A DNA stretch of 64,000 bases from positions 27,608-91,607 of the forward strand of contig JAUSNP010000003.1 of the NCBI GenBank assembly GCA_030645735.1, in the 5' to 3' direction. Both the position numbers and the translations under genes were made by a program. The notes beneath the pieces were generated by a model that made no database searches, was not told where the DNA came from, and worked only from the letters and a program-made list of their open reading frames with translations. This DNA comes from Candidatus Moraniibacteriota bacterium. GTDB taxonomy: Bacteria > Patescibacteriota > Minisyncoccia > Moranbacterales > UBA2206. Shown here piece after piece: positions 3,089 to 49,720 of this stretch. Numbering within the stretch: position 1 is the first letter of the stretch; every line of letters begins with the position of its first letter.

Positions 3089-4540
3089 CTAGCGCTCCAA
3101 GTCAAGCGTTTCATCAATGTGGATCTGCTCCACAAATTCCGGTACATGGGAGACTAAAATCATGGCACCTTCAAATTTATCCAAAGCTTTGGCAATGACT
3201 GGCAAATGACGGAAGTTGATATGATTAGTTGGTTCGTCTAAAATCAACAATCCAGGCTCCAACAGCACTAATTGCGCAAAGGCCACCAAGCCTTTCTGCC
3301 CTTCTGACAGTGTGCCGATTTTGGCATTGATGATTTCTTTGGTTAGCAAAAAGCCTGAGGCTACAGCCCTCATTTGCTCCTCATTTTCTGAAGGCATGAC
3401 GGAAAAAAGCGATTCGCGCACAGTGTGATCAAAATTCAAAGTCGAAAAATCTTGTCGATAATATCCTACTTTCACGCCCTCAGCAATTTTGGCACCTTTG
3501 GCTTTGCCTAGAGCCAAAGCTTCAATCAAGGTGCTCTTGCCAATGCCGTTGGGGCCAGAGATCAAAAGATGTTGTCTTTTTTTCAAGGAAATGCGCGCTT
3601 CTTTTTCCACAATCTCATGATTTTGCATAATCGAAAAAGATGAGATCTTCAAAATTTCTCCGCCCAAGCCCTCCTGAACTGGAATGGTGAAATCACGAAT
3701 AGCCTTGTCTTCTCGACGCACAGCCACCTTGGCTTCTTCCATGGCCGCCGCCTTGTCGCGCATCTTCTTGGCTACCAATCTCATGCCACCACCTTTGTTG
3801 GCAAAGAAGTTGGCCTTATCCTTGTTGGCTTGAATTTCTTTTTCATACTGCGCGTTTTTTCTTTCATCCTTTTCAATCTTGTCCGCAATTTCTGCCACCA
3901 CTACATAGTAGTCACCAATATATTGATCAATTTTCTTGGTAAAAATATCTAAGTAAATTACGCCATCGGTAAACATATTCAAAAAGTCAGCATCATGTGA
4001 AATCACGATGCAGGTCTTGTGATAGCTCATCAAAAATTGCGTCAGATGTTCAATTCCTGCTTTGTCTAAGTTGTTAGTTGGCTCATCAAGAATCAACAAA
4101 TCCGGATCTTGAATCAAGGCGGAAGCCAAAAGCAGACGCGCTTGTTGCCCACCGGAAAAATCTTTGATCAGCCGATCATGAGGCGCTTTCAAATTCACCA
4201 CTTCCAACACATCATCAATCAAGCGATCAATGTCATATCTTTTTTCAGAAAAACAATTTTCAAAAAATTCTCGCATAGTGAGGGTCATTTGCTCACGCGG
4301 AATCACCTGTTTGGCATAAGCAATGGTCATGTCTGGATCAACAAAAATTGAACCGTCATTCTGCTTAAGTTCGCCCGTAATCATATTGAGAATCGTACTC
4401 TTGCCAGCGCCATTCTGTCCCATCAAGGTCATTTTGGTGCCATGACGCAACGCAAAAGACGCCTCGTCCAAGATTTGCTTGTCACGGCTATATTCGAAAG
4501 ACACCTTATTAAACCGAATAGCTACATTGTCCTTGCCCAT
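3089..4540 (-). CDS. ABC-F family ATPase (two ABC nucleotide-binding domains, no TM domain)
   Basis: Two Walker A motifs (GQNGAGKSTIL and GPNGIGKSTLI), two LSGGQ signatures and Walker B LLILDEPTN repeated twice. Confidence 0.85.
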   Translation of the reverse strand: MGKDNVAIRFNKVSFEYSRDKQILDEASFALRHGTKMTLMGQNGAGKSTILNMITGELKQNDGSIFVDPDMTIAYAKQVIPREQMTLTMREFFENCFSEKRYDIDRLIDDVLEVVNLKAPHDRLIKDFSGGQQARLLLASALIQDPDLLILDEPTNNLDKAGIEHLTQFLMSYHKTCIVISHDADFLNMFTDGVIYLDIFTKKIDQYIGDYYVVVAEIADKIEKDERKNAQYEKEIQANKDKANFFANKGGGMRLVAKKMRDKAAAMEEAKVAVRREDKAIRDFTIPVQEGLGGEILKISSFSIMQNHEIVEKEARISLKKRQHLLISGPNGIGKSTLIEALALGKAKGAKIAEGVKVGYYRQDFSTLNFDHTVRESLFSVMPSENEEQMRAVASGFLLTKEIINAKIGTLSEGQKGLVAFAQLVLLEPGLLILDEPTNHINFRHLPVIAKALDKFEGAMILVSHVPEFVEQIHIDETLDLER

Positions 4541-5513: not shown

Positions 5514-6218
5514 CTAATTTAACACTTTTTTGGCATACATATCCACGTCTTGCACCCATTTGTCAGCGGCCGCTTGTCCGCCAGTCACCGAACAGTCAGA
5601 GCCACACTTCCAAACAACCATATCCTTGGCTGATTGCGCATCATTTCTTTCAATGATTTGGTCTATTCTAGTAGCCACGGCATTCACTGCTTCTTTGGGC
5701 GTGTCAAAACAAGTGTGTCCGCCACTGCCCATACGATCTCGTTTCGCTCGGAAGCCCCAATAGTTATAACAATCTTCACCATTTAACACCGGCTTTCTTT
5801 CTCCCCAAGCGCTTTCCTTTTTGGCGATACCGATGATATAAGCCGCTGTCTTTCTGTCCTTTGAAGAAATAAAAGGAATCATTTCTTCAATTGGATGACC
5901 TTTCACCAAAGCCTGCAAATCTTTTCTCAGAATTTCTTTTTTAATTTCTTGCGGATTTTTTTGCTCAACAATCTTCGCTTGGCACAAAATATTATTAGAA
6001 TAATATTGTTTTACCAAAACTACATAGCCAGCAAATATAATTAGACCCACCAAAACTACAATTCGCACTTGGACTTGATTGAGTTTGCCAGGCACAAGGC
6101 TTTGTCTGAAATCCTCAACTACCTGCTTGGCATTTCCAGAAAAATCGCTAAAATAAGCGCTTATTTGAAGTTTCGCCTTTTTGGACAGATTATTCAATTT
6201 TGTTTGTATTTTGTTCAT
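5514..6218 (-). CDS. Membrane-anchored hypothetical protein (N-in, single TM, Cys-containing extracytoplasmic domain)
   Basis: TM segment VRIVVLVGLIIFAGYVVLV. An AAGGA SD precedes the internal ATG (MNKIQTK). No family recognised. Confidence 0.5.
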   Translation of the reverse strand: MNKIQTKLNNLSKKAKLQISAYFSDFSGNAKQVVEDFRQSLVPGKLNQVQVRIVVLVGLIIFAGYVVLVKQYYSNNILCQAKIVEQKNPQEIKKEILRKDLQALVKGHPIEEMIPFISSKDRKTAAYIIGIAKKESAWGERKPVLNGEDCYNYWGFRAKRDRMGSGGHTCFDTPKEAVNAVATRIDQIIERNDAQSAKDMVVWKCGSDCSVTGGQAAADKWVQDVDMYAKKVLN

Positions 6219-9355: not shown

Positions 9356-9513
9356 AAGAAGAATAATTTAATAATCTTACAATATTCTATCACGAAAAGT
9401 TCTGGCAGCATATTAGAGCATACATAAAATAGGCTCTTTTAAGCCTTTTTATTATGTTGCTCCACGAGTTGAAAATACTCAGCAAGGACCGTCCTCGATT
9501 AGACACTCATTTC

Positions 9514-9543
9514 CCCAAAATAAAAAAGTGCAAGGCTCCGCGA
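9514..9543. repeat. Left copy of a 30-bp direct repeat (cccaaaataaaaaagtgcaaggctccgcga). It duplicates the 3' end of tRNA-Asn plus 20 bp of flank.
   Basis: Exact 30/30 match to 10586..10615, with 2-3 more similar bases upstream. Confidence 0.8.
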
Positions 9544-10465: not shown

Positions 10466-10585
10466 ACCACACCATTTTCAATCACAACAGAAAGCCGAAA
10501 GTTCGCAGTGCGAACCGTAGGCTTTTTTATTTTCTAAAAATATAAATTGCCTAGCAAGGACAATTCTCAACTTAGTGCTATTTTT

Positions 10586-10615
10586 CCCAAAATAAAAAAG
10601 TGCAAGGCTCCGCGA
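10586..10615. repeat. Right copy of the 30-bp direct repeat; overlaps the 3' end of tRNA-Asn
   Basis: Identical to 9514..9543. Confidence 0.8.
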
Positions 10616-10679
10616 CCAGGACTCGAACCTGGAACCAATTGATTAACAGTCAACTGCTCTACCATTGAGCTATCGCGGA
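10606..10679 (-). tRNA. tRNA-Asn (anticodon GTT)
   Basis: Reverse complement reads TCCGCGATAGCTCAATGGTAGAGCAGTTGACTGTTAATCAATTGGTTCCAGGTTCGAGTCCTGGTCGCGGAGCC. 7-bp acceptor stem, D-loop AGCTCAATGGTAGAGC, anticodon loop CTGTTAA, T-arm GGTTCGAGTCC. Confidence 0.85.
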
Positions 10680-25773: not shown

Positions 25774-25828
25774 TTGAAAATTTATACTTTATTACTTTAA
25801 ACTTCTTTTAGTCTTTGGTACTTAGTCC

Positions 25829-27124
25829 TTAGACTTTTATTTTAGCTAATTCTTCTTGAATAACCTTTTTATCATTCCACTCAATTCTCTGATCCCCAAC
25901 TGCCATTGTTTCCTCAGCGCCTTTGCCAGTGACAATTACAATATCATTCGCCTTTGCTAATGACAGCGCTTTGGCGATGGCTTCACGGCGATCAAAGATT
26001 TTCCAAAAGTTTTGTCCTTCGGTTTTGTTCTTCACACCACTAGCCACTTCGTTGATGATTTGTTGTGGGTCTTCATGATAGGGGTCTTCATTGGTGACGA
26101 TGACATAATCAGCAGAAGCCGAAACAATCTCACCCATCAAAGGGCGCTTGCCACGATCACGCTCACCACAGGAACCAAAAACCGCAATGATTCGGCTATC
26201 AGTTTTTTTCACTGAGGTCAGATATTGATAGAGCTTTTGCAAAGAGTCAGGCGTCACCGCATAATCAATCATCACGTTCAAATTTTTGTCGTTGGCAATT
26301 GATTCAAGTCGTCCGGCCACACCAGTGATTTTTGCCAAAGCATTTGCTGATTGTTCCAAGGAAATGTTTTGTGAAATTCCCACAGCCACCGCTGCCAGAG
26401 AATTTTCAATATTAAATTCCCCGGGAAGATTAATTTTAAATTCACAACCTGAAACCTGAAATGCAGAATTATAAATGTCCAACTTGATATTATTCGCAAA
26501 AATATTTTGAGATTTGAGATTTGAGATTTGAGATTTTTTTGTATCTTGTATCTTGTGATTTGTATCTTTCAAGCTGTATCCAAACTTAACTGCATTATTG
26601 TATTGTAAAAACTCCTCGGGTTTTTCCATATCCAAATTCACCACCGCCACATCTGCCATCCCAAATAATTTAGCTTTGGCCTGGCGATATTGCTCAATAG
26701 TCTTGTGATAGTCCAAATGTTCACGCGTCACATTGGTGATGACTGCCACAGCATAGTGAATCCCCCACACGCGACACTGGTCCAAAGAATGTGATGAAGT
26801 TTCCAAAATCAGATAATCACATTTAGCCTCCACCGCTTTTTTGATGAACTTCTGAGTGGCAAATGGAGAAAGGGTGGTGTACTTGGTCACATTCACCCAC
26901 TCCTCAGCGCCCAATTTGAAATTTATAGTTGAAGCCATGGCGACAGTGTGTCCTGCTTCTTCCAAAATTTTGGCAATCATCTGACAAGTGGTGGTTTTGC
27001 CGTTAGTTCCAGTCACCCCAATCACCTTGATATTTCTCGACGGAAAACCATACGCAAAATTCGCCACTACCGCTTGCGCCAAGTGGTAGATGTTTTTGAT
27101 GGATTGTGGGATCAGTTTTTTCAT
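25829..27124 (-). CDS. Mur ligase family protein (MurE-like), carrying an in-frame 7-bp-unit tandem-repeat insertion
   Basis: IGVTGTNGKTTTCQMIAKIL P-loop, Mur ligase middle and C-terminal domains. A (gagattt)x4 plus (gtatctt)n block at 26509..26570 encodes ...KIQDTKKSQISNLKSQ... Confidence 0.75.
   Translation of the reverse strand: MKKLIPQSIKNIYHLAQAVVANFAYGFPSRNIKVIGVTGTNGKTTTCQMIAKILEEAGHTVAMASTINFKLGAEEWVNVTKYTTLSPFATQKFIKKAVEAKCDYLILETSSHSLDQCRVWGIHYAVAVITNVTREHLDYHKTIEQYRQAKAKLFGMADVAVVNLDMEKPEEFLQYNNAVKFGYSLKDTNHKIQDTKKSQISNLKSQNIFANNIKLDIYNSAFQVSGCEFKINLPGEFNIENSLAAVAVGISQNISLEQSANALAKITGVAGRLESIANDKNLNVMIDYAVTPDSLQKLYQYLTSVKKTDSRIIAVFGSCGERDRGKRPLMGEIVSASADYVIVTNEDPYHEDPQQIINEVASGVKNKTEGQNFWKIFDRREAIAKALSLAKANDIVIVTGKGAEETMAVGDQRIEWNDKKVIQEELAKIKV
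26509..26570. repeat. 7-bp-unit tandem repeats (gagattt)x4 followed by gtatctt-like units, inside the Mur ligase CDS
   Basis: ttgagatttgagatttgagatttgagatttttttgtatcttgtatcttgtgatttgtatctttc. The reading frame is maintained. Confidence 0.8.
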
Positions 27125-27164
27125 ATATTCATTATACCTTGATTTTCTTATTTAAAAAAATACA

Positions 27165-27188
27165 GGCCGAGTTCATTTGAACTCGGCC
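27165..27188 (-). terminator. Hairpin terminator for the 27224..28186 gene
   Basis: ggccgagttcatttgaactcggcc is a perfect 9-bp stem, with a T-run on the minus strand. Confidence 0.5.
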
Positions 27189-27223
27189 CTTTTAATATGC
27201 GCTCTCCTTATTTCCAAAGAAAA

Positions 27224-28186
27224 TTATTTGGATTCTAACATCTTGCTGTCAAATAAAGGGATTGCTAACTGGATATTATTTCTATGCATCCAAGCTAGCC
27301 GTAGTTTTCTTGCAAGACCTGGCAAAGACCACGCCCGCAAAAGTTCACCTCCTGGACAGAAAGTGCGTTGACAGCAATGCCAGCAAGCCCTCTCTTGCAA
27401 ACTATAACCCATATCAATCCCCGAATGTATGCCATTGAAAACCAGTCCTTTAGGACATCCGCCAAATTCTGCTAACATCTTGTCTATTGGGACTCCGACC
27501 TCGCCGTTTTCAAGCTCAATAATTGGCAGATTCCAACCATTAACAATAATCCTTCCGCCGCCACAACCGCCAATCAAATCCGCGGCTCTCAGTTGCTGAC
27601 CCATGAGATCGTCATCATCTATAATTGGAAGTGCAGGAATCATGATGATATCTGGATCAAGCTGATCTTCGATGGCTATCTCAGAGACTTCACGCGTGCC
27701 TGAATCTTCATTTGGATATTCAGAAAAAATTCTGGCCACACCTTCTTCTGGTGGATTTTCCAAAAAAGACCTAAGCGTTTCTATGAAATACCTGAAGTCA
27801 TTGTCCTGAAAAAATCCCCCTGCTCCCTGCCAAGACCAACTGCTTTTAACCTCCTCTTTAGCTAAATTTATAAGCCCGTCAACTGCATCTAGAATCAAAA
27901 CTGCTTCTTGTCTATCCTGTTCAGACAATTGCCCGTCTCTGATTCTTGACCAAACTTCATTGAGTATGAACTGAATTTTCATTTTCCAATAGCTCGACAA
28001 CCTCTCAGTATACCCTTGCCTTCTTGAAATATCACGCTCCTCCTTTTCCATGATAGCCAGCATCTCCCTAATCTCAGAATCAAGCTCCGGCTTATACTGT
28101 CTGATCAATTCCCACATCCTTGAATAAAAATGCGGGAGGGATACCAAGATGCCACCAAACATAACTCCACAAATTTCCTGTGTCAT
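27224..28186 (-). CDS. Hypothetical protein (320 aa), moderately GC-richer than neighbours
   Basis: Long ORF with a terminator downstream. Acidic N-terminal half, Gly/Cys-containing C-terminal half (GGCGGGRIIVNGW...CWHCCQRTFCPGG). No family recognised. Confidence 0.5.
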   Translation of the reverse strand: MTQEICGVMFGGILVSLPHFYSRMWELIRQYKPELDSEIREMLAIMEKEERDISRRQGYTERLSSYWKMKIQFILNEVWSRIRDGQLSEQDRQEAVLILDAVDGLINLAKEEVKSSWSWQGAGGFFQDNDFRYFIETLRSFLENPPEEGVARIFSEYPNEDSGTREVSEIAIEDQLDPDIIMIPALPIIDDDDLMGQQLRAADLIGGCGGGRIIVNGWNLPIIELENGEVGVPIDKMLAEFGGCPKGLVFNGIHSGIDMGYSLQERACWHCCQRTFCPGGELLRAWSLPGLARKLRLAWMHRNNIQLAIPLFDSKMLESK

Positions 28187-28295
28187 CTCGCTACCCCCAA
28201 AAGTTTAAGTTTAATAGGATGATTATGTTAAAGGACTGATTAAATATTTAATCATTAAATAACATAAAATGCAAGTGTTCTGCTAAAGCTTATTT

Positions 28296-29318
28296 TTAAA
28301 AGAAACTTTTGATTTTCTGAATAATACGATAGGCCAAATATTTTCTTCGGCCAATTATAATGTCATAACAACCGGGGAACTTGATTGAAACAGTTACTGG
28401 AGAAAAACTTTGTTTGAATCTGGTGATGCCCGCCCAATTATTATCCGCTGTTCCTGTTTTCACTCCGCCGAAATCATACCCAATCGCCCCAAATTTTTTA
28501 GCATCTTGAATTTGCTTCCATTGCAACAGATAGGGCGCCATCACATTGCGAAAACGATCATCCGAGGCGCCATGCAAATAAGTTACTGTGTCATCAAAGA
28601 AAATCACAATATTAGCTGCAATTATTTCCCCGCCTCGCGTCGACGAGCGGTCGTCTCCGCAAGTCGAGGCGGGACCTTCAAATTCTGCATAATATAGTTT
28701 TATATTTTCTCCTGGAATTGCCTCAAACATTTTTTGATAATAATCGCGCGGATGCGGAGTGATGCTTTGACGAGCGGAAGTGATTTCCACTAAGTCGCAA
28801 AATTTGTCCACATATTTTTTTTCATTGGAAATTCCCACTCGCACACCTTTCTTTTCAGCTAGTCTGATGTTATAACGGGTTTTCGGTTTCATCTCAGCTA
28901 GCAATGTTTCTTCACTTTTGGTGATATCAATAATAAATAATTCTCTAGGTTGCATATCATGTGGCGCTTTCACGACAAACGCATCAACACTTTTCTTGGT
29001 CAAATCCAAAATTTCTTGTGACGCGGGTTCAATGCGAATCCAGCCAGCATGATGGTCTTCAGCCAAGCCAATTAGATTTTTAAAATAATTAGAAACATTC
29101 TTGTCTCTGATGTTAAAAATATTGCCCCGCGGGATATAAAAATATTTGCCGACGATTGGCAATTTGTGCTCGATGATGTTGGACCAGAATCGTTCGCCCT
29201 TGATGTTCAAAGTTTTTTTGCCAGCCAATTCTTGAAATTCTCGCCACCAGTCCGACTGTAAAAATCCTTCCCCAGGGGCTTGTTGCATCAGGTCATTAAT
29301 TTTCAAATTATCTCGCAT
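28296..29318 (-). CDS. FemAB-family peptidyltransferase (aminoacyl-tRNA-dependent peptidoglycan branch formation), with an in-frame palindromic-element insertion
   Basis: FemAB-like architecture and length. The insertion encodes GPASTCGDDRSSTRGGE. Confidence 0.65.
   Translation of the reverse strand: MRDNLKINDLMQQAPGEGFLQSDWWREFQELAGKKTLNIKGERFWSNIIEHKLPIVGKYFYIPRGNIFNIRDKNVSNYFKNLIGLAEDHHAGWIRIEPASQEILDLTKKSVDAFVVKAPHDMQPRELFIIDITKSEETLLAEMKPKTRYNIRLAEKKGVRVGISNEKKYVDKFCDLVEITSARQSITPHPRDYYQKMFEAIPGENIKLYYAEFEGPASTCGDDRSSTRGGEIIAANIVIFFDDTVTYLHGASDDRFRNVMAPYLLQWKQIQDAKKFGAIGYDFGGVKTGTADNNWAGITRFKQSFSPVTVSIKFPGCYDIIIGRRKYLAYRIIQKIKSFF
28627..28672. repeat. GC-rich ~47-bp palindromic element, copy A (ccccgcctcgcgtcgacgagcggtcgtctccgcaagtcgaggcggga)
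   Basis: 9-bp terminal inverted repeat cccgcctcg/cgaggcggg with internal palindrome cgtcgacg. About 65% GC inside an AT-rich gene. Near-identical to 36275..36321. Confidence 0.85.
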
Positions 29319-29321
29319 AAT

Positions 29322-29894
29322 TTATTTCTTGCCTAAACTCCGTAAAGCCAAACCAATGCGTTGCCCAATATCAGTCACATCCTTGGCCACCAGCTTCAAA
29401 GCATCGCGCGCCTCGGTCACAGAATAGCCCATAGAAACCAAAGCTTCAATCGCATCAGAATCTGAGACAGCATCCTCCTTTTCGCTCTCTGGCATGTCCG
29501 CCACCTTGTTTCTGAGCTCCAAAATGACCCGCTCAGCGGTTTTCTTACCTACCCCTGAGACTTTGGTCAGAATCGATGAATCCTCGTTCAGAATGGCCGT
29601 TTTGATAGTTTGCGGGGTTGCAATCGACAAAATCCCCAAACCAGCTTTAGGGCCGATGCCTGAGATGGAAATCAAGAGCTCAAACATGTCCAATTCTTCC
29701 AGTGTCAGAAAGCCATACAAATCCAAGGCATCTTCACGCACCGAAGTGTGAATGAAAAAATCCACCCTTTCCACGCCCGCAATTTTGCCCAACGCATAAG
29801 TTGTGAGATGCACTTTGTAGCCCACGCCAGCCACATCCACCACGACAAACTTGTCCTTGCGATATTCAATTGTGCCCTTTATCTTCGCAATCAT
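29322..29894 (-). CDS. ruvA: Holliday junction helicase subunit RuvA
   Basis: MIAKIKGTI..., HhH domains ISGIGPKAGLGIL and VSGVGKKTAERV. Confidence 0.9.
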   Translation of the reverse strand: MIAKIKGTIEYRKDKFVVVDVAGVGYKVHLTTYALGKIAGVERVDFFIHTSVREDALDLYGFLTLEELDMFELLISISGIGPKAGLGILSIATPQTIKTAILNEDSSILTKVSGVGKKTAERVILELRNKVADMPESEKEDAVSDSDAIEALVSMGYSVTEARDALKLVAKDVTDIGQRIGLALRSLGKK

Positions 29895-30005
29895 CCTGTG
29901 TGATTTGCCTATTTATTAACTACTAGAATTCTAGCTTTTTTTCACCAAAAAGAAAAGCGCTGTTGCCAGCGCTTTCCCCCTATTCATATTCCACTCGGGC
30001 TAGCT

Positions 30006-30125
30006 TAGGATTTTTGCAAAAGCTAGCGTTACTACCAAGATGCCATAGCTGGCTAATCCAACAGCAACCATTACAACAGTTGCCATCGAAAGATGAAACA
30101 ACATTTCTAATTTATCCATATGATT
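30006..30125 (-). CDS. Possible 39-aa hydrophobic peptide (MDKLEMLFHLSMATVVMVAVGLASYGILVVTLAFAKILS)
   Basis: Small ORF followed by the hairpin aaagcgctgttgccagcgcttt at about 29958-29980. Below the ORF-track cutoff. Speculative. Confidence 0.25.
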
Positions 30126-30316
30126 TAAAATTAAATAAATTACGATAATTTTATCCATTTACCCTTAAATACAGTGAATATAATGGATATGTGAACTTAG
30201 CACCCAGCCAATTTTTTGTCAAATAAATTTAGCGCTTTTTGCCCCAGCTCTTGCCTAAACCAAAATACTATGCTAAAAATAGTAGGTAACTAAAAAGAGA
30301 TAAATTTCAAAAAACT

Positions 30317-30589
30317 ATGCCAATCAAAACATCCGCTAAGAAATACATGCGCGTGACTGAGCGAAAGACTGAGATTAACAAGAAAATCAAAGGTCTTTTC
30401 CGTAGCGCTATCAAGAAAGCCACTGAAGCCATCGCCAAAAACGATGCCAAGACAGCTGGAGAATGGGCCAAAAAAGCCTTCCAAGCCTTGGATAAAGCTG
30501 CCAAAAAAGAAGTGATCAGCAAAAACACCGCTGCTCGCAAGAAATCGAGATTGAACAAGAAAGTTAAGGCTATTACAATCAAGAAATAA
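30317..30589 (+). CDS. rpsT: 30S ribosomal protein S20
   Basis: MPIKTSAKKYMRVTERKTEINKKIKGLFRSAIKKATEAIAKND, 90 aa. Confidence 0.9.
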   Translation: MPIKTSAKKYMRVTERKTEINKKIKGLFRSAIKKATEAIAKNDAKTAGEWAKKAFQALDKAAKKEVISKNTAARKKSRLNKKVKAITIKK

Positions 30590-30606
30590 TCCTCCTCAAT
30601 CAAAAA

Positions 30607-30632
30607 ACACCCCCGAAGGGTGTTTTTTGATT
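30607..30632 (+). terminator. Rho-independent terminator after rpsT
   Basis: acacccccgaagggtgt followed by tttttga. Confidence 0.6.
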
Positions 30633-30762
30633 GCAAGTCTAATTTCTAAAGTTTAAAGTCTAAAAGAAGTATTTAAGTCTAAAGTTTGAAGTATTTTTTA
30701 ACTTTATACTTTTAAACTTTAGTCTTGCTTTAGACTTTAGTATTTAGACCTTAGACTTTCCG

Positions 30763-31728
30763 TTAAAGTTCAACTACAAACTTATCTAGTGCCACCTTCA
30801 CCTCAATCTGCCCGGTTTTGATTTGCGTGTCGAGCTGGCTGAGTTTTTCATAGACGGCTTTCAATTTCGGCAAAGGGAAATTGCGCAATTGGCCGAGACT
30901 TTTTTTGACCACAAAGGGATGCAAACCAGCCGTTTTGGCTATCGCTGATTCATTGCCAAAAAACTGACCTTGCAAATCCGCCACCTTCAAAAGATTGCGG
31001 AATTGATAAACAAACATCGAGAAGATGTAGAAAGGATCCTCGCCTTTTTTCAAATGTTCCTGCAACAAACGCAAAGCCTCTTTTTTGTTGTTATTGGCCA
31101 ACGCGTCAATGGTATTGAAAATGTTGGTATCCAAATTGGCGCGCACTAGCAAATCTACATCTTCTGATTGAATGACTTTTCCGTGGGCAAAATCAACCAA
31201 CTTGCGCAATTCCTTGTCTAATGAATTGGTATCACTCCCGACAAACAAAATCAATTTTTCCAAAGCGCTTCTGGAGATGCCACTCTTATCATCAAGCTCT
31301 TTGATTCTTTGCACAATCCACTGAGTCAATTTGAGACCGCTCAATTTTTCGAAATTCTGAGACTTGGCAATTTTTTCCAACACTTTATACAGCTTGCCGT
31401 TTTTCTTGGGCTGGCCATCTTCCCAAAAAATCAACACTAGATCTAGATCAGTTTGAATATTTTTTTCATACTTTTTCAAATAATCTAGCAATTCGTCTTT
31501 TTCAATGTCTGTCCCCGCCTCAACCATATCCCGCACAATCACCAATCTTTTAGGCGCCAACAGATTGGGCGTGTTCAAAACATCTAACAATTTCTGTTTA
31601 TTGTTTTGCCCATAATCAAAAACTGACAAACCCGAGCCAATCGTGTCGGTTGCCAAAAACTTATTTTTGATTTCTAGAACTTTTTGACTAGATCGAAATG
31701 AGTCTTCGCCGTACAAAAAAAATAACAT
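30763..31728 (-). CDS. holA: DNA polymerase III delta subunit
   Basis: MLFFLYGEDSF N-terminus, 321 aa, delta-subunit-like helical C-terminal domain. Confidence 0.7.
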   Translation of the reverse strand: MLFFLYGEDSFRSSQKVLEIKNKFLATDTIGSGLSVFDYGQNNKQKLLDVLNTPNLLAPKRLVIVRDMVEAGTDIEKDELLDYLKKYEKNIQTDLDLVLIFWEDGQPKKNGKLYKVLEKIAKSQNFEKLSGLKLTQWIVQRIKELDDKSGISRSALEKLILFVGSDTNSLDKELRKLVDFAHGKVIQSEDVDLLVRANLDTNIFNTIDALANNNKKEALRLLQEHLKKGEDPFYIFSMFVYQFRNLLKVADLQGQFFGNESAIAKTAGLHPFVVKKSLGQLRNFPLPKLKAVYEKLSQLDTQIKTGQIEVKVALDKFVVEL

Positions 31729-31832
31729 GCCTAAATTTTTAGTGATTATTCTCTAATGTCTAGTATATAGCATATCAGGCAAACAAAAAAGAAAGCCCTT
31801 TTTCAAGGGCTTTCTAATGAATTCTATTGAGA

Positions 31833-32990
31833 CTAAACTCCCGGTGTCCACTTCAAGGATTGTCCTGGTTCTAGAATTTCCACCCAGATCTGACCTGGCA
31901 CAAATTTCATTTCTTGACCAGCTTGGTCATAAAAGAATAGTTTGCTATCTAGTCTTGCTTTGTCTTTCTTCCAAGTTCCGATATATTCTTTACCGTTCAA
32001 ATAATAATGCGCTTCGCCTGAATCGGATGAATCATACCATGGGTCACCGATTTGAACATTGTTATAGCGACCAGAAATGCTTTCTACTCCAGTCTTTTTG
32101 ATTTCTTCTACATTCTTCCATGGGTCACTCATACCTTTTCCAACATAATCATAGTCCGCCATAATTTGCTCTGAAGCTGCGGTCAAAACCACAACATTTT
32201 TTGGCGCCACTCGTTGGTCATTGTTGCGATCAGTGTCAATGGCCTCACCCCAAGTTCGCAAATATGAGTTGGTAGCTTTGTCATAATCATATTCAGCATC
32301 ATACGGTTTTTTGAAAGCTACACGCAAATGACCGCCTGTTGGTCTCTGATCTTCTGGAGCCTCTCCTTGATGAGCATAGCCAGAAAATTTTCCTTCCGTG
32401 CGATATTTCTTATCAGCAATCATAGCCAAAATATTGTCCTTAGTGATGTGACCAGTGTCCTCCAAGCGCATTTTGCCAGAAACATCCCAGCGGGCGCAAT
32501 AGTTGCCAGTCATACAATCATAATTGTCGATTACCTTTTCTTTCAAAAGATCTAGTGCAAAATGTGATCCGCCCCAGTGAATGAAGACTGCGTCCAATCC
32601 TTTGGCCAAAGCGATGTAGTCATGTCGTGAACTGCGAATTGCGCCAACCTCCTTCGGGATGTCACAAACATACACGCCCATAAGCCTAGTCACTGAGCCT
32701 GTGAAAGCGGGCATTTCAATCACCATATCCGCTTGAGAAAATCCAGCAGCTGGTCGCGCTTGCACATCCGACGGTTGCATCACGGCCACTGGTCGCTTGT
32801 TCCAATTTTCACAAGCAATGCCAGAAATTGGACTGACTGGTCCTTCGTTGGCAATTGGATATTCCTGTGGTTGACCTCCATTGTTAATTTCGATTTTTTT
32901 GACATCTTTTGATGAGGAGAAAAAATACCATCCTCCTGCCACCACTACGATTGCCACTATAGCAATAATCGCTTTCTGCTTCGTACTCAT
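31833..32990 (-). CDS. DUF3048-domain exported protein (YerB-like)
   Basis: N-terminal TM, then ...RPVAVMQPSDVQARPAAGFSQADMVIEMPAFTGSVTRLMGVY, typical of DUF3048 N/C domains. Confidence 0.65.
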   Translation of the reverse strand: MSTKQKAIIAIVAIVVVAGGWYFFSSSKDVKKIEINNGGQPQEYPIANEGPVSPISGIACENWNKRPVAVMQPSDVQARPAAGFSQADMVIEMPAFTGSVTRLMGVYVCDIPKEVGAIRSSRHDYIALAKGLDAVFIHWGGSHFALDLLKEKVIDNYDCMTGNYCARWDVSGKMRLEDTGHITKDNILAMIADKKYRTEGKFSGYAHQGEAPEDQRPTGGHLRVAFKKPYDAEYDYDKATNSYLRTWGEAIDTDRNNDQRVAPKNVVVLTAASEQIMADYDYVGKGMSDPWKNVEEIKKTGVESISGRYNNVQIGDPWYDSSDSGEAHYYLNGKEYIGTWKKDKARLDSKLFFYDQAGQEMKFVPGQIWVEILEPGQSLKWTPGV

Positions 32991-33053
32991 TTATTTTTTA
33001 GACAGGAAAATGAAATTTAGTGTTTCATGTTTCATGTTTTATGTTATATGAAT

Positions 33054-34001
33054 TTATTTTTGACATTTAGGACAAAAGAAAACACTTCTCTGTCCAATTG
33101 TTTCACGCACGATTATTGTATCACATTTTTGACATTTTTCACCAGCCTTGCGATAAACTTTCAAAACTTTCTGAAATCCACCAGGGGCGCCTGAGGTGTC
33201 GCGATAATCTGAATCAGAAGTTCCGCGCAATTTGATGGCATGGCGCAAAATCTTGCCGATCCAGCCAAAAAGCTTTTTTCTTTCAATTGTTGAGATGTTT
33301 CCTGCCAGCCTAGTTGGTAAAATTCCGGCGACAAACAAAATCTCACTCCGATAGATATTGCCAATGCCAGCAATCAAATTTTGATCCATCAATATGATGC
33401 CTATTGGACTCTTGGCTTTTCTATCCAAAATCTCATTGAATTTTTTGAAAGTGAAATCCGGACTCACCGCGTCAATTCCCAAAGCTTTGATTTCTGGCAA
33501 CTCCAAAACCTTGTCTGTGTCCACCAAAACAATTTTGGCAAATTTACGCACATCTGAAAACTCTATTACTTTATTGAATTTAATATTTTTTTTATCTTTG
33601 GTGTTTTGAGTTTCAGTTTTTGATATTGTTTCGGATTTCGATTTTCGGATTTCGGATTTTAAATAAAATTTATGTCGAATATACTGATTCACCCTATCTT
33701 CAAAATAATCCTTTCCATCCACTTTCGACTTTCGACTTTGGACTTTGGACTTGATTAAAAGGTGTCCCGTCATCTTCAGATGCAAATATAGCGTTTTCTC
33801 GCCCGACAAATCCACAAAAATATTTTTACCGATTCGGCGCACGCCCAAAATTTTTCGTCCCACAATTTCTTTTTTGAAAACAGCCAAGGTTTTTCCTTTG
33901 ATGGCTTTGGGCCACTCACTCCAAAAATCGGTGATTGTGTCACCCTTGATTTTTTCATTCAAATCATTCACCACCGTCTGGACCTCTGGCAATTCTGGCA
34001 T
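33054..34001 (-). CDS. mutM: Formamidopyrimidine-DNA glycosylase, with internal tandem-repeat insertions
   Basis: MPELPEVQTVVNDL N-terminus (Pro2, Glu3), H2TH region, and a C-terminal zinc finger CQKCDTIIVRETIGQRSVFFCPKCQ. Repeat blocks at 33601..33670 and 33719..33756 encode KSKxxxx-type low-complexity segments. Confidence 0.85.
   Translation of the reverse strand: MPELPEVQTVVNDLNEKIKGDTITDFWSEWPKAIKGKTLAVFKKEIVGRKILGVRRIGKNIFVDLSGEKTLYLHLKMTGHLLIKSKVQSRKSKVDGKDYFEDRVNQYIRHKFYLKSEIRKSKSETISKTETQNTKDKKNIKFNKVIEFSDVRKFAKIVLVDTDKVLELPEIKALGIDAVSPDFTFKKFNEILDRKAKSPIGIILMDQNLIAGIGNIYRSEILFVAGILPTRLAGNISTIERKKLFGWIGKILRHAIKLRGTSDSDYRDTSGAPGGFQKVLKVYRKAGEKCQKCDTIIVRETIGQRSVFFCPKCQK
33601..33756. 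repeat. Two blocks of short tandem repeats (tttcggatttcgattttcggatttcggatttt; ctttcgactttcgactttggactttggacttg) about 50 bp apart, inside fpg
   Basis: Seen directly. The fpg frame is maintained. Confidence 0.8.
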
Positions 34002-34120
34002 AAAAATTTATTACTTTTTATTAAGCTATTTTAGCATTATTCACGCATTACATCAATTTGACCATTATAAAAGGGCTCGTGCAGAATCACACAAGCCCTT
34101 TGTTTTGAAGTATTCAGCAT

Positions 34121-34537
34121 TTATGCAGCTAGGTCATAATCGTACGGCGTACATTTACAACTTACGCCGACTAGCATCAGAAAATTTTCACTAGTAATCT
34201 CCTTGACTACATACACTCGACTCTTGCCCCTTACGACAACATTGCAGCCTTTGACAATCCCTTTTCTGGTAATGTTTTCCAAACGACCTGCTATTGCCTT
34301 CGTTCTTGCATTTGCAAACTCGCAGTCCGTTGTTGCCTTGTTTGAAAGAGATGCATCGATCGCTGGTAATGCATGATTTCTTCCTTGATAAACCTTGTAA
34401 CTCTTCCAATTCATATCTCCTTCTAACTGCGACATAGAAAAAATCCTTCTAAATAAAATTATTCTTCCCGTCGAATTTTCGACGACCCATTGCCCAAAAG
34501 AACTAAACACTATCAGAAAATTTACAGCAAAAATCAT
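34121..34537 (-). CDS. Hypothetical exported protein (138 aa)
   Basis: N-terminal hydrophobic segment MIFAVNFLIVFSSFGQW. No family recognised. Confidence 0.4.
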   Translation of the reverse strand: MIFAVNFLIVFSSFGQWVVENSTGRIILFRRIFSMSQLEGDMNWKSYKVYQGRNHALPAIDASLSNKATTDCEFANARTKAIAGRLENITRKGIVKGCNVVVRGKSRVYVVKEITSENFLMLVGVSCKCTPYDYDLAA

Positions 34538-34604
34538 TTTGTGTCAATCAAAAAAGTCGGGAAACCCGACTAATTTTTAATTTTGAGATTTCAATTTTAA
34601 ACTT

Positions 34605-37343
34605 TTATATTTCTCCCCAATTATCCCCAATCTGCACATCCACTACCAATGGAACCTTGAGTTTGATGACTTGTTCCATGGCGGTTTTTATTTTTTGCGC
34701 AAAAGTTTCCGCGATTTCTTCTTTGACTTCAAACAAAAGTTCATCATGCACTTGCAAGATTGTGCGGGCCTGGCCGGCAAATTCAGCCACGACTTTTTCA
34801 GCTTCAATCATAGCCAATTTCATGATGTCAGCCGCCATGCCTTGGATTGGCATATTGATGGCCATACGTTCAGCACCAGATTGCACTTGGAAATTGGCCG
34901 AGTTTATTTCTGGAATGTAACGACGGCGACCCAGTTGTGTTTCCACGAATAAATTTTTCTTGGCTTCCTGCTTGGTGTCGTGCATATATTTGGCCACGCC
35001 CGAGAACTTTTCCATATATTCATTGATGAAATTCTTGGCTTCTTCACGATCAATGCCGGCCGAAGCCGCAAAGCCAAACACGCCCATACCATAGATGATG
35101 CCGAAGTTCAACGCCTTGGCCTTGCTGCGCATTTTTTCTGTGACTTGCGACATGGAAACCTTGTTGATGATGGAAGCAGTCGCGCGATGAATGTCTTCGC
35201 CTTTGGTGAAAGCTTCGATCATGTTTTTGTCGCCCGACACATGCGCCACCACTCGCAAATCAATTTGTGAATAATCAGCACTGACCAATTTGAAACCTTT
35301 CTCTGCCTCAAAAGCCGTGCGCAAAAGTTGCCCCACATCAGTTTTGATCGGAATGTTTTGCAAATTTGGATCAGAAGATGACAGTCGTCCAGTGGCTGCC
35401 ACCGCTTGATTGAACGAGGTGTGAATGCGTGAATTATCATCCACCAACTTCGGCAATGAATCTAGATAGGTTGTCTTCAATTTGAAAATTTCACGATATT
35501 CTTCAATCTTTTCAATGATCTTGTGTTCTCCGCGCAATTTTGTGAGCTCAGCTGAAGCAGTAGAAAAACCAGTTTTCAATTTCTTCACATTGTCTGTCGG
35601 AATCTGCAAAGTTTCAAACAAAACATCCGCCACTTGTTTGGGCGAACTGATATTGAAATCTTTGCCCGCCAGCTGGTGAATGCTTTTTTCCAGAATGGCG
35701 ATGCGTTTTTCAATGGTTTCCGAAATGCCAACAAAAATAGTCTTGTTTAAATGGATGCCATGCATTTCAATCTCAGCCAAAATCTTGACCAAGGGCATTT
35801 CAATTTTTTGCAAAACAGTTTCCAGATTATGCTTCTCACCCTGTTGCATGGAAATATCTTGAATTTTTTTCTGATGAATGCTTTCCACTTTGAAAACATA
35901 GTCTGCGCGCTGACAAATCTGTTGTGCCACTTCAGTCGCCGATTCAATTTCCAAGCCCAGTTGGCCTTTTTTGTTAGCTGCTGACAATTCTTCACCCAAT
36001 TCTTCCAAAACGATGTTTTCCAATTCAACTTTGCCACCGGGATTCAAAACATAGGCCGACAACATCACGTCCCAATAAATATTTTTGAGTTCAATTCCAT
36101 ATTTTCGCAAAACTTCAAACGCATGTTTCAAATCATAACCAATTTTTCTGATTTTTTCATTTTCAAAAATGGTTTTCAACCTGGCAAAACTCTCAACTGA
36201 ATATTCCACATAACCGGCGCGTCCGGTCTTGTGACAAATCGCCACGCCCTGGATGGTGCTGGCAAAATATTTTTCCCCGCCTCGCGTCGACGAGTGGTCG
36301 TCTCCACGAGTCGAGGCGGGTCCAACTGTCTTTAGTGTAATCGCAATTTCTTCTTGCTCACTTAATAATTTCACGAAATCATCCATTTTTTCTGGGGTTA
36401 TCAATTCAAATTTGAAATCTTTCACGCCAGCCGCATCAGTACTACTCGCTTTCATATCTCCACTTCCTTGTCCTGGCAATCGCTTAATCAATGAAAAGAA
36501 ATTCAATTCTTGAAAAAGTCTGACAATCGTCGGCCGATCAAACTCGCGCGTCACCGCTTTTTCCAAATCCAATTGCACCGGCGCGTCCAACACAATGGTT
36601 GCCAACCACTTGCTTTTGAAAGCCAAGACTTTGTTTTTTTCCAATTTGTCTTTCACTGCGCCTTTGATTTCCGCAATGTTTTCATAAACCTTTTCCACCG
36701 TGTCATATTTTTGCAAAAGAGTGGTAGCGGTTTTTTCACCGATGCCTTTGACGCCTGGAATATTGTCCGAAGCATCCCCACGCAAACTCTTGTAATCAAT
36801 CATTTGATCCGGTCGCAAACCGAACCTTTCAAAAACTTCTGGTGCGCCATAGAGCACAGTGTCAGTAATGCCACGACGCAACGCAAAAACTTTGGTAGTG
36901 TCATTCACTAATTGCAAAGTGTCCAAATCGCCAGTCACGATGATATTTTCAATGCCTGCATTCAATTTTTTTGATTGTGTCACGATGGTTCCAATCACAT
37001 CATCCGCCTCAAAACCTTCTTTTTCATAAATCGGAATGTTGAAAGCGCGCACCAATTCCTTGACGCGATCAATCTGCGCATACAACTCATCCGGCGCCTT
37101 GGTGCGAGTGGCTTTGTATTCCGCATATTCCTCATGACGAAAAGTCGGCGCCTTCAAATCGAAAGTGGCGATGATATAGTCCGGCTGAAATCTTTCAATC
37201 ACGCTGAGCAGTGTCGAAGCAAAACCATAAACCGCATTCACCAACTCGCCTGACTTGGTCGACAACGGTGGCAAAGCATGAAACGAACGATGAATAATCG
37301 CATTGCCGTCGATAACTACTAGTTTTTTAGTCTTTTTTTCCAT
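34605..37343 (-). CDS. polA: DNA polymerase I (5'-3' exonuclease, 3'-5' exonuclease-like and polymerase domains), with an in-frame palindromic-element insertion
   Basis: 5'-nuclease N-terminus (VIDGNAIIHRSFHALPPL), and polymerase motifs RRxAKxxNFGxxYG (RSKAKALNFGIIYG) and VHDELLFEV. The insertion encodes GPASTRGDDHSSTRGGE between the nuclease and polymerase regions. Confidence 0.9.
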   Translation of the reverse strand: MEKKTKKLVVIDGNAIIHRSFHALPPLSTKSGELVNAVYGFASTLLSVIERFQPDYIIATFDLKAPTFRHEEYAEYKATRTKAPDELYAQIDRVKELVRAFNIPIYEKEGFEADDVIGTIVTQSKKLNAGIENIIVTGDLDTLQLVNDTTKVFALRRGITDTVLYGAPEVFERFGLRPDQMIDYKSLRGDASDNIPGVKGIGEKTATTLLQKYDTVEKVYENIAEIKGAVKDKLEKNKVLAFKSKWLATIVLDAPVQLDLEKAVTREFDRPTIVRLFQELNFFSLIKRLPGQGSGDMKASSTDAAGVKDFKFELITPEKMDDFVKLLSEQEEIAITLKTVGPASTRGDDHSSTRGGEKYFASTIQGVAICHKTGRAGYVEYSVESFARLKTIFENEKIRKIGYDLKHAFEVLRKYGIELKNIYWDVMLSAYVLNPGGKVELENIVLEELGEELSAANKKGQLGLEIESATEVAQQICQRADYVFKVESIHQKKIQDISMQQGEKHNLETVLQKIEMPLVKILAEIEMHGIHLNKTIFVGISETIEKRIAILEKSIHQLAGKDFNISSPKQVADVLFETLQIPTDNVKKLKTGFSTASAELTKLRGEHKIIEKIEEYREIFKLKTTYLDSLPKLVDDNSRIHTSFNQAVAATGRLSSSDPNLQNIPIKTDVGQLLRTAFEAEKGFKLVSADYSQIDLRVVAHVSGDKNMIEAFTKGEDIHRATASIINKVSMSQVTEKMRSKAKALNFGIIYGMGVFGFAASAGIDREEAKNFINEYMEKFSGVAKYMHDTKQEAKKNLFVETQLGRRRYIPEINSANFQVQSGAERMAINMPIQGMAADIMKLAMIEAEKVVAEFAGQARTILQVHDELLFEVKEEIAETFAQKIKTAMEQVIKLKVPLVVDVQIGDNWGEI
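36275..36321. repeat. GC-rich ~47-bp palindromic element, copy B (ccccgcctcgcgtcgacgagtggtcgtctccacgagtcgaggcgggt)
   Basis: About 43/47 identical to copy A and in the same orientation. Similar A/T-then-CCCC left flank. Confidence 0.85.
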
Positions 37344-43776: not shown

Positions 43777-43782
43777 GGATTT

Positions 43783-43945
43783 AAGGCTCTGTTATGAGAT
43801 AAGTTGTGCAAGTCCGTGCTCAGGTTTGCGTCAGATTTGTTTTAAAAAATTTGAAGATGTATCGAGATACTTCGAGAATTTTTTAAAACAAAGATGTCGT
43901 GAAGATGAGTGCGAAATTGTATGAATTATCTCATAACAGAGCCTT
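43783..43945. repeat. Nested inverted repeat. A 20-bp perfect outer stem (aaggctctgttatgagataa / ttatctcataacagagcctt) encloses a 16-bp perfect inner stem (tttgttttaaaaaatt / aattttttaaaacaaa).
   Basis: Outer arms at 43783..43802 and 43926..43945. Inner arms at 43836..43851 and 43877..43892. Located in the tsaE / nrnA-like intergenic region. Confidence 0.8.
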
Positions 43946-44009
43946 AGCCAGATATTTGACACAAACAATTTCAATTGCTATTCTATGAAACTAACTTAAA
44001 CATACCTAT

Positions 44010-48315: not shown

Positions 48316-48433
48316 CCCTCTCCCTTAGGGAGAGGAGGTTCGCTTTTTCTCCTTCTCCCTCAAGGGAGAAGGTGCCCGAAGGGCGGATTCTGAACTTATT
48401 AACATTGTCATCCCGGGCTTGACCCGGGATCTA
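48316..48433. repeat. Cluster of four GC-rich hairpins (cctctccc-tta-gggagagg; ccttctccc-tcaa-gggagaagg; gccc-gaa-gggc; atcccggg-cttga-cccgggat)
   Basis: About 60% GC over about 120 bp, between the gspE fusion stop and the GIY-YIG start. The first two hairpins are variants of each other. Confidence 0.75.
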
Positions 48434-48439
48434 CTTTTT

Positions 48440-48751
48440 ATGCAACACCAATATTGTGTTTACATATTAACTAGCCAAACAAACCGAGTTTTGTATGTTG
48501 GTGTGACAAGTAACTTACCCAAAAGAATCTTCGAACACAAAAATAAATTGGCAGATGGTTTTACGAAAAAATACAATGTCGATAAATTGGTTTATTTTGA
48601 GCAAGGCGAGGATGTGAGTTCTGCCCTGCATAGAGAAAAACAATTGAAAAAATGGAAAAGGGAGTGGAAACTTGAATTGATCGAGAAGTCTAATCCTGAA
48701 TGGAAAGATTTGAGCGATACCTTAGTAGATTCCGGCTCAAGGCCGGAATGA
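48440..48751 (+). CDS. GIY-YIG nuclease-domain protein (small, UPF0213-like)
   Basis: YCVYILTSQTNRVLYVGVTSNLPKRIFEH with Y..Y..G and a downstream R/E (REKQLKKWKREWKLELIE). Start taken at ATG 48440; the track ORF starts at 48419. Confidence 0.7.
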   Translation: MQHQYCVYILTSQTNRVLYVGVTSNLPKRIFEHKNKLADGFTKKYNVDKLVYFEQGEDVSSALHREKQLKKWKREWKLELIEKSNPEWKDLSDTLVDSGSRPE

Positions 48752-48821
48752 CAAATCTTAGACAATTAAAAAACAGCGGCCCCTCCTAGGTCGCTGCTTT
48801 GCTTTCGCCGGCATTACCGAT

Positions 48822-49310: not shown

Positions 49311-49720
49311 GTGCTAATCTGTGATTCTGACAATAATCTGCAGGCAAGTCCCAAGAGTTAGACCCTCGGGGAAGGAACAGTATCGAGGCACGACCCAGCC
49401 GAAACCAGAACGCCCATATCTTGATAAAAAGTTCCCAAAATTGATGACAAAAGATAGAAGTCACCAATTGCCTACAGCTTACTGCTAGCCATATAAAAAG
49501 GCATTGTTTCAGCCGAACTCATATGACTAAGTAGCTTAGCATAGCTTGGGTTTTTTGTCAAGTAATGCTAAGATGAGCCTAGAGCTCAAAAAGGCTAAGG
49601 CCTAAAGACCAAAGACTAAACAAAGCATTAAGACCAAAATAATAACCACTTAAACCTTTCTACTTTTTAAGCTTTAGACTTGTTTTAGTCTTTAGTAATT
49701 AGACTTTAGACTTAAAATTT

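Follow-up and report, generated by a model that had tools for sequence, protein, structure and literature searches.

A GC-rich 45-bp palindromic repeat, probably mobile and translated in frame, in protein genes of Moranbacteria and other Patescibacteria, and its association with tRNA-linked GIY-YIG nuclease genes

The 64,000-nucleotide (nt) stretch of Candidatus Moraniibacteriota bacterium analyzed here (GenBank assembly GCA_030645735.1, contig JAUSNP010000003.1, positions 27,608 to 91,607 of the forward strand; "the window" hereafter denotes the whole of this stretch) harbors two copies of a short palindromic element, one inside a gene of the FemAB family and the other inside polA. The element is probably a mobile selfish DNA repeat that is translated in frame. 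The first copy (28629–28673, + strand) is a 45-nt GC-rich hairpin reading CCCGCCTCGCGTCGAC...GTCGAGGCGGG on the + strand and giving the minus-strand peptide PASTCGDDRSSTRGG. The second (36276–36320, + strand) is also 45 nt long, has the same orientation and frame, and gives the minus-strand peptide PASTRGDDHSSTRGG. The first host gene (28296–29318, minus strand) codes for a FemAB-family peptidoglycan bridge-formation transferase of 340 amino acids (PF02388, PF13480) with the insert at residues 216–230. The second (34605–37343, minus strand), assigned by its Pfam domains and orthologue alignment, codes for DNA polymerase I of 912 amino acids with the insert at residues 342–356. The two host proteins are each identical to a protein of an NCBI metagenome-assembled genome labelled Candidatus Moranbacteria.

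The pattern CCCGCCTCG-N27-CGAGGCGGG matched the window exactly at these two positions and in none of 100 dinucleotide-preserving shuffles of it (expected number 0), and a third, diverged copy was not found in the window at up to three mismatches. The 45-nt cores are identical at 42 of 45 positions, and two of the three differences form one compensatory pair (GCGG/CCGC in one copy, GTGG/CCAC in the other). A repeat search of the window reported the copies as a 52-nt pair with 92% identity. Both carry the 9-bp terminal inverted repeat CCCGCCTCG/CGAGGCGGG and an internal CGTCGACG. The frame is the same in the two minus-strand open reading frames (ORFs), where the peptide reads GPASTCGDDRSSTRGGE in FemAB and GPASTRGDDHSSTRGGE in PolA. 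The initial annotation had described two near-identical copies in one orientation, with a terminal inverted repeat and an internal palindrome, lying in uninterrupted minus-strand ORFs and encoding nearly the same peptide, and all of this was borne out; its coordinates were displaced by 1–2 nt, and the GC content, given there as ~65%, was measured as 73–76% (40% for the whole window). The palindrome does fold: a hairpin of either strand was predicted at −27 to −29.5 kcal/mol (z about −3.2 to −3.6), and the two copies are the most stable GC-rich hairpins within the window. A Logan assembly contig (SRR13727526; L001) corresponding to window positions 26508–36305 at 100% identity stops 30 nt inside the polA copy, as assembly graphs break at repeats; its other end lies in a simple repeat at 26504–26536.

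By alignment with orthologues, the FemAB and PolA segments are lineage-specific insertions and not ancestral motifs, as had been supposed from the window alone. At the site corresponding to PolA position 342, the insert was absent from 118 of 120 orthologues (62–100% identity), and the full 15 residues were present only in the protein of the window itself. The 90% identical orthologue P0002 reads ...KTA-GEKYF... without the insert, and its empty site (AAG ACT GCG GGA|GAA AAA TAT) compared with the filled site of the window (ACA GTT GGA|45 nt|GAA AAA TAT) indicates a clean 45-bp insertion with no target duplication. A 64% identical PolA (P0035) carries a 39-nt remnant at the site of the window, shorter by exactly two codons, and two further orthologues (P0100 and P0112) carry the full peptide at another site, in the polymerase domain, as independent insertions. 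The Pfam domains of the window PolA are the 5'-3' exonuclease (7–270), an exo1-like domain (356–456) and pol A (540–911). The insert had been placed between the 5'-nuclease and polymerase regions; it does lie past the 5'-nuclease domains, and more exactly it sits where the degenerate 3'-5' exonuclease-like domain begins, at the N-terminal edge. Other short in-frame inserts were also seen among the PolA orthologues, namely NPPAGG (P0015, P0029, P0030), TTSLDQNDQKRSDL/STSFDQNDREK (P0018, P0120, P0002) and GLGLAHG (P0005), which may represent additional coding-insert families of these genomes.

In FemAB, 107 of 120 orthologues lacked the insert, the closest one (77% identical) among them. The 13 orthologues with an insert carry it at the identical site and are scattered over the tree, so that a neighbour-joining tree needs at least eight gains or losses; the same site is occupied in two other Moranbacteria (L006, L115). 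The inserts belong to differing subfamilies (RGDD, REDD, RGND), and several are exactly one codon shorter (14-residue forms). The AlphaFold2 model of the window FemAB is confident overall (predicted local distance difference test score, pLDDT, 88.9; predicted template modelling score 0.87), except in the insert. The insert is modelled as coil with pLDDT of about 50–70 between the strands 206–213 and 231–241, which places it as a low-confidence loop at the tip of a β-hairpin.

The distribution of the family was evaluated by applying the pattern CCGCCTCGCGTCGAC-N18-30-GTCGAGGCGG to a single genome of each GTDB species. These species representatives gave at least 118 further stretches, in agreement with the early expectation of more copies; the 118 listed hold 119 copies, which with the two of the window make the 121 listed copies on which the family figures rest. 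Almost all of the listed matches come from assemblies whose titles name Moranbacteria/Moraniibacteriota, the Parcubacteria group or the Patescibacteria group; variants also occur in Doudnabacteria and Gottesmanbacteria, and a few matches stand under record titles of Bdellovibrionales or Gammaproteobacteria, with the labels taken as given. In one assembly there are at least 14 copies, in a second at least 10. The exact length of 45 nt is found in 106 listed copies, with the consensus CCCGCCTCGCGTCGACGAGCGGTCGTCTCCGCGAGTCGAGGCGGG, and variants of 46–57 nt keep the arms and differ in their centres. The viral contigs scanned gave no match. An assembly artefact was dismissed as the element is present in dozens of independent assemblies, and a CRISPR repeat as there is no array.

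Of the 121 listed copies, 61 lie inside long ORFs that read through the element, many of them for essential proteins, and about 34 are intergenic. The host genes include those for ATP synthase alpha and beta, UvrA, UvrB, SecA, topoisomerase I (TopA), MnmA, RecG, LepA, GlmS, the CCA-adding enzyme, ArgRS, RecJ, GyrB and radical-SAM enzymes. After orthologous sites were collapsed, 47 unique coding sites remained, and the 45-nt copies at unique sites were distributed over the six frames as 1, 2, 11, 26, 4 and 0 (chi-square p = 3e-13). The favoured frame, PASTRGDDRSSTRGG, accounts for 26 of 44 unique sites and is that of the window copies. Peptides from the two common frames carry little net charge, and those from the rare frames are strongly basic. 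Intergenic copies between co-directional genes showed no comparable bias in orientation (15 versus 10), which argues for selection on the peptide as the source of the in-gene bias and led to the rejection of strand-specific insertion. Among the listed copies, the 46- and 47-nt variants are all outside ORFs. Two copies (L030 and L060, in LepA) measure 50 nt by the boundary rule and are nevertheless read through; their true length is thus taken to be a multiple of three, with the boundary uncertain by 1 nt. Decayed in-gene copies remain in frame through loss of whole codons, as in the 39-nt remnant of P0035 and the 14-residue FemAB forms. The absence of stop codons from all six frames was dismissed as a coding signal because 37% of composition-matched shuffles are likewise stop-free, and an intein was rejected as the element is far too short and has no splicing motifs.

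In the hairpin, an outer stem of 9 bp is followed by a bulge of 5 nt, 2 bp, a tandem G.A, an inner stem of 4 bp and a loop of 6 nt, and the tandem G.A adjoining the inner stem is conserved across copies. All four pairs of the inner stem, in the centre that the search pattern left unconstrained, covary between G-C and A-T. The double-change cells numbered 32 against 10.8 ± 2.5 in shuffled data, none of 500 shuffles reached 32, and every slid register scored far lower. Since the same stem variants occur at many loci, the covariation probably reflects subfamilies of a propagating sequence rather than evolution in place, and it suggests that this sequence needs its hairpin. No family in Rfam matched the element at the gathering threshold; only two tRNAs were matched.

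In the flanks of 104 unique 45-nt copies, neither a conserved sequence nor a direct duplication nor a continuation of the palindrome was seen, and direct matches of 1–5 nt were at or near the chance level. The sole signal in these flanks was a rarity of T at position −1 and of G at +1. Because the flanks are unconserved, the element is 45 bp long and not ~60 bp, as the similar left flanks of the window copies had initially suggested. The same-frame sites lean weakly towards GG.|GA, with 0.7 bit per position at most, and the 47 unique coding sites have almost no sequence in common; a preference for an A/T-run followed by CCCC, raised at the outset, found no support, as the information content of the flanks is below 0.7 bit. 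In other Moranbacteria, six intergenic copies (L004, L007, L017, L028, L059, L068) were seen to be flanked by a short repeat, TAGATTCGCAT/ATGCGAATCTA, in either orientation, which lengthens the palindrome in places.

The element appears, from these sequence features, to be translated and not spliced out. An intron of group I, group II or the bulge-helix-bulge type was rejected, as a ribozyme core does not fit into 45 nt, the flanks are unconserved, and frame and length are constrained. There is a second way in which the peptide could be missing from the protein, namely a mini-intron acting at the RNA level, with an endonuclease and a ligase excising the hairpin from mRNA and tRNA precursors so that the proteins would lack the 15 residues. 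The conserved stem is in agreement with this, Patescibacteria are unusually intron-rich (PMC13011429), and one locus (L032) holds a full-length tRNA-Glu(CUC) gene with the 45-nt element in its D-loop (6138–6182), where such an insert would be expected to harm the tRNA. However, a second, intact tRNA-Glu(CUC) lies 2.3 kb away, so the interrupted copy need not function, and the element has no Rfam match. The frame bias, the read-through only of lengths divisible by three with the 46- and 47-nt variants all non-coding, the persistence of frame in copies decayed past folding, and the unconserved flanks, which leave no exon-intron pairing such as a bulge-helix-bulge, all speak against excision, and we consider it very improbable. 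Programmed ribosomal bypassing, as it occurs in gene 60 of T4 or at the GC-rich "byp" inserts in Magnusiomyces mitochondria, is barely credible. The insert is of similar size (45–50 nt) and forms a hairpin, a GGA codon precedes the polA insert, and the T4 insert is also tied to a homing endonuclease; yet neither a stop codon nor a frameshift occurs within or after the element, the take-off and landing codons do not match (GGA...GGG GAA in polA, GGT...GGG GAA in femAB), and the frame bias indicates that the encoded peptide is under selection.

Some of the non-coding copies lie within apparent tRNA D-loops. With the element deleted in silico, ARAGORN recovered one full tRNA, that of L032, and the remaining tRNA contexts are partial 5' copies. 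These belong to a cassette in which a partial 5' tRNA copy split by the hairpin is followed by an ORF of ~85 amino acids with a GIY-YIG domain and then by a complete, uninterrupted tRNA gene; the ORF starts at or near the position of the anticodon loop. The cassette was found at L024, L042, L043, L048, L067, L072, L073, L084, L085, L090, L093, L100, L112, L029 and L122–L201. Two cassettes are arranged in tandem at L029, and the order is reversed, with the hairpin-bearing fragment downstream, at L161, L173, L190 and L194. The L032 locus also holds a cassette (about 3400–3830), with a ~150-nt nested composite element in a partial tRNA copy followed by an intact tRNA-Glu(CUC). The cassette ORF matches the GIY-YIG domain PF01541 (E-values 1e-12 to 1e-18); among solved structures, its closest relatives are the UPF0213 proteins BH0048 and EF2693, followed by SLX1 and the catalytic domain of I-TevI.

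Within 913 kb of fetched loci, 15 of 20 GIY-YIG ORFs abutted the element, and in an unbiased clustering of all ORFs within 1.5 kb of elements GIY-YIG was the sole non-host family to recur. No transposase family, Y1 included, emerged from this clustering (8-kb neighbourhoods). The association was also examined from the side of the nuclease by a metagenome scan, in which 80 loci were kept of 399 GIY-YIG relatives. A tRNA gene (Glu, Gln, Arg, Leu, Val, Phe, Ser or Ala) was located directly downstream of the GIY-YIG gene in 70 of the 80 loci, and a CCGCCTCG...CGAGGCGG hairpin ~10–70 nt upstream of the ORF in 35 of 77. Direct reading of the loci that had a downstream tRNA and were negative by regular expression revealed a related GC-rich hairpin splitting a partial tRNA copy in 17 of the 18 read, of the types CCCGCCTAGAC..., CCTGCCCGACT...GTCAGGCGGG and CCCGCCCGAAC...GTTCGGGCGGG. 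The hairpin splits the tRNA at positions 7–23, in either orientation, and some cassettes have two or nested hairpins; these split points were taken from clean cases and direct reading, automatic detection being noisy with spurious short matches. Several genomes contain the cassette together with solo in-gene copies.

The window has a GIY-YIG ORF of its own (48440–48748, + strand, 103 amino acids, PF01541), located between inverted hairpin repeats TTGTCATCCCGGGCTTGACCCGGGATCTAC (48405–48434) and GTAGATTCCGGCTCAAGGCCGGAATGACAA (48725–48754). In L107 and L069, a GIY-YIG gene is bracketed on both sides by TGTCATTCCCGC...GCGGGAATC in the same layout. The unit at 48405–48754 looks like a second kind of GIY-YIG-plus-hairpin arrangement.

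The regular position of the hairpin upstream of the GIY-YIG ORF could also mean that it serves there as a 5' stabiliser or operator, and more generally the element could be a module beneficial to the host, either a protein motif or a cis-acting RNA or DNA signal (pause site, stability element or binding site), recruited repeatedly. The nucleotide sequence is highly conserved across phyla in host proteins that are just 50–70% identical, and the stem covaries. The insert is, however, missing from most orthologues at any given site, the closest ones included, its sites are spread among unrelated proteins, tRNA genes and spacers, with both orientations represented, it is modelled as a disordered loop, and in-gene copies decay. 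A beneficial role is therefore considered quite improbable.

On the most probable reading, that of a mobile selfish repeat, a 45-bp GC-rich imperfect palindrome spreads within and between genomes of Moranbacteria and other Patescibacteria. Its insertion is precise: it adds exactly 45 bp, or 15 codons, leaves no duplicated target and requires no strict target sequence. Copies landing in genes would survive only when read through as a tolerable peptide, mostly PASTRGDDRSSTRGG, which is predicted to be hydrophilic, nearly uncharged overall and loop-forming at a surface turn; the window copies would thus be transcribed and translated as part of FemAB and PolA. The spread would depend on the hairpin, because compensatory changes among the subfamilies keep the stem. 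The hairpin may be moved in trans by a structure-specific nuclease, for which the stand-alone GIY-YIG protein of ~85 amino acids (UPF0213/Slx1-like) is the best candidate, and the window copies would then be "solo" non-autonomous derivatives, as repetitive extragenic palindromic (REP) sequences are to the REP-associated tyrosine transposase (RAYT). This nuclease step, taken alone, is conceivable but somewhat short of probable. Taken further, the tRNA-linked GIY-YIG proteins would be the movers of the hairpins and the whole a previously unrecognised nuclease-driven mini-element without target duplication, having its autonomous form at tRNA genes, a proposal that must be called doubtful.

The same cassettes allow the hairpin to be seen instead as a scar conferring immunity. 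The tRNA-linked GIY-YIG protein would be a homing endonuclease cutting the D-arm DNA of tRNA genes and similar sites in other genes, a hairpin copied in by repair would be kept because it destroys the cleavage site, and the window copies would show where off-target sites of femAB and polA have become protected. The hairpin does lie within the partial tRNA copy beside the nuclease gene in the cassette loci examined, at tRNA positions 7–23; the FemAB and PolA sites have been occupied repeatedly by different subfamilies of the element; and the empty PolA site CAGTTGGAGAA resembles the D-loop site CAGTTGG|TTAGAG occupied in L109. Precedents are available in the MobA/bypass cassette (bioRxiv 10.1101/2022.08.31.505936) and in T4 SegB (PMC2330249). 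On the other hand, the intact downstream tRNA copy has no hairpin and would still be cleavable, the 47 unique coding sites have almost no sequence in common, the 7-mer resemblance to the D-loop could be due to chance, and both the identical 45-mer everywhere and the roughly 34 intergenic copies are left without explanation. The immunity scar is considered unlikely; sequence alone does not separate it from a transposase-like mode of spread.

Several points weigh against a mobile, translated repeat driven by a nuclease. We infer translation from the frame statistics and the whole-codon decay. The recurrent FemAB site (13 of 120 orthologues) and the occupied PolA site in a 64% identical orthologue are difficult to square with so weak a target motif, short of a hot spot, a homing-like conversion or precise loss. 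The outer arms were preset by the search pattern, so that their invariance is partly by construction, and copies of the source genome were counted within the 64-kb window only. The nuclease link is an association between neighbouring sequences, and the variable tRNA position and both orientations of the cassette hairpin also fit tolerance or selection in a dead tRNA fragment. The window has no tRNA-linked cassette, only the different GIY-YIG subfamily at 48.4 kb.

Among known systems, the initial annotation had likened the element to the Rickettsia palindromic elements (RPEs). In the work of Ogata and co-workers of 2000 and 2002, RPEs are said to be palindromic repeats found in frame in essential genes and also in RNA genes and spacers, adding hydrophilic surface loops to the proteins. 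Like an RPE, the present element is an in-frame palindromic repeat in protein genes that is absent from orthologues, and in the FemAB model (pLDDT 88.9) it lies in a loop with the fold intact. RPEs are 100–150 bp long, belong to Alphaproteobacteria and are AT-rich like their host, whereas the element is 45 bp long with ~75% GC in a patescibacterial window of 40% GC. It also has a recurrent nuclease-gene partner; to our knowledge, no such partner has been reported for RPEs. RPEs are mentioned in two of the sources consulted (PMC1779305, PMC10969869). The likeness is thus upheld for behaviour and not for family membership: the element is RPE-like, and it is set apart from the RPE family by length, composition and lineage, not by alignment to a consensus.

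Short hairpins that insert with no target duplication, together with a hairpin-flanked single-domain enzyme gene, are characteristic of the REP/REPIN-RAYT and IS200/IS605 palindrome-associated elements (PMC3733652, PMC3184786). The element resembles them in its dispersed GC-rich hairpins, maintained stems and seamless empty site. REP sequences lie outside genes and bear a GTAG/CGTC tag on one of their ends, whereas 61 of the 121 listed copies of the element are intragenic and the element starts with CCCGCC; the partner of REPs is a RAYT (Y1 HUH), whereas that of the element is a GIY-YIG protein, with no RAYT within the 8-kb neighbourhoods. Assignment to REP/RAYT was rejected on these grounds (not extragenic, no end tag, no RAYT gene nearby). 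IS200/IS605 elements insert beside a fixed target of 4–5 nt, and assignment to that type was rejected as the element has no fixed target (at most 0.7 bit per position). The GC clusters of yeast mitochondria are palindromes of ~30–50 bp in an AT-rich genome and are optional among strains, and a 46-bp cluster in var1 is read in frame. They are similar to the element in size and in their contrast of composition with the host, but they are organellar, unrelated in sequence and mostly intergenic. We know of no dedicated nuclease for them. GC clusters are reviewed in PMC4464245 and PMC8811140.

In T4, a 50-nt insert in the essential gene 60 travels with the homing endonuclease MobA and blocks its cleavage (10.1101/2022.08.31.505936), and SegB, a homing endonuclease of the GIY-YIG type, acts within a cluster of tRNA genes (PMC2330249). 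The gene 60 insert is out of frame, bypassed and confined to one fixed site, whereas the element appears translated and occupies dozens of unrelated sites; MobA is an HNH protein with DNA-binding domains, whereas the cassette nuclease is a bare catalytic domain of ~85 amino acids. One feature of homing cassettes, a GIY-YIG domain encoded beside a tRNA gene, is present in the related tRNA loci and not at the window copies. Bacterial MITEs (miniature inverted-repeat transposable elements), such as the Correia elements, are small and non-autonomous, have terminal inverted repeats and are sometimes located in genes (PMC10969869). The 9-bp arms are in keeping with this; MITEs, however, make target-site duplications and derive from DDE transposases, whereas the element makes no duplication and has no transposase gene nearby. 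A classical MITE was rejected for want of a target-site duplication in 104 copies and at the GGA|GAA empty site.

In the open literature (subscription journals were outside the scope of the search), no description was found of the element, its peptide or palindromic or in-frame repeats in the Candidate Phyla Radiation, nor of a GIY-YIG/tRNA cassette in Patescibacteria, and the paper on tRNA introns of Patescibacteria (PMC13011429) makes no mention of palindromes, hairpins or GIY-YIG. The element as a family and its association with nuclease and tRNA genes are new. Patescibacteria have among the smallest and most streamlined of bacterial genomes. A proliferating repeat tolerated in their core genes for replication, repair, secretion and the cell wall bears on selfish DNA under genome reduction, and the element is one concrete source of lineage-specific protein insertions in this group. 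For assembly and annotation, it breaks short-read assemblies, inflates the apparent divergence of proteins and can interrupt tRNA genes, which are then missed by standard tRNA finders. The cassette layout offers a starting point for testing what stand-alone UPF0213-type GIY-YIG proteins do. If the nuclease-driven reading were true, the widespread UPF0213 GIY-YIG family would gain a function as the GIY-YIG counterpart of REP/RAYT, with solo hairpins writing loops of 15 residues into essential proteins throughout the Candidate Phyla Radiation, and this would be new in kind if confirmed.

Other repeats were also observed in the window. A 72-nt direct repeat (76% identical) is located at 9472–9543 and 10544–10615, its second copy overlapping the 3' end of a tRNA-Asn gene (10606–10679, minus strand), which suggests an insertion of ~1 kb beside tRNA-Asn. 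A 60-nt AT-rich intergenic repeat with TTTAGACTTTAG-like units is present at 25778–25837, 30700–30759 and 49655–49714, and inverted at 49589–49645. The longest inverted repeat of the window (43782–43946) has 70-nt arms that are 79% complementary and separated by a 25-nt spacer.

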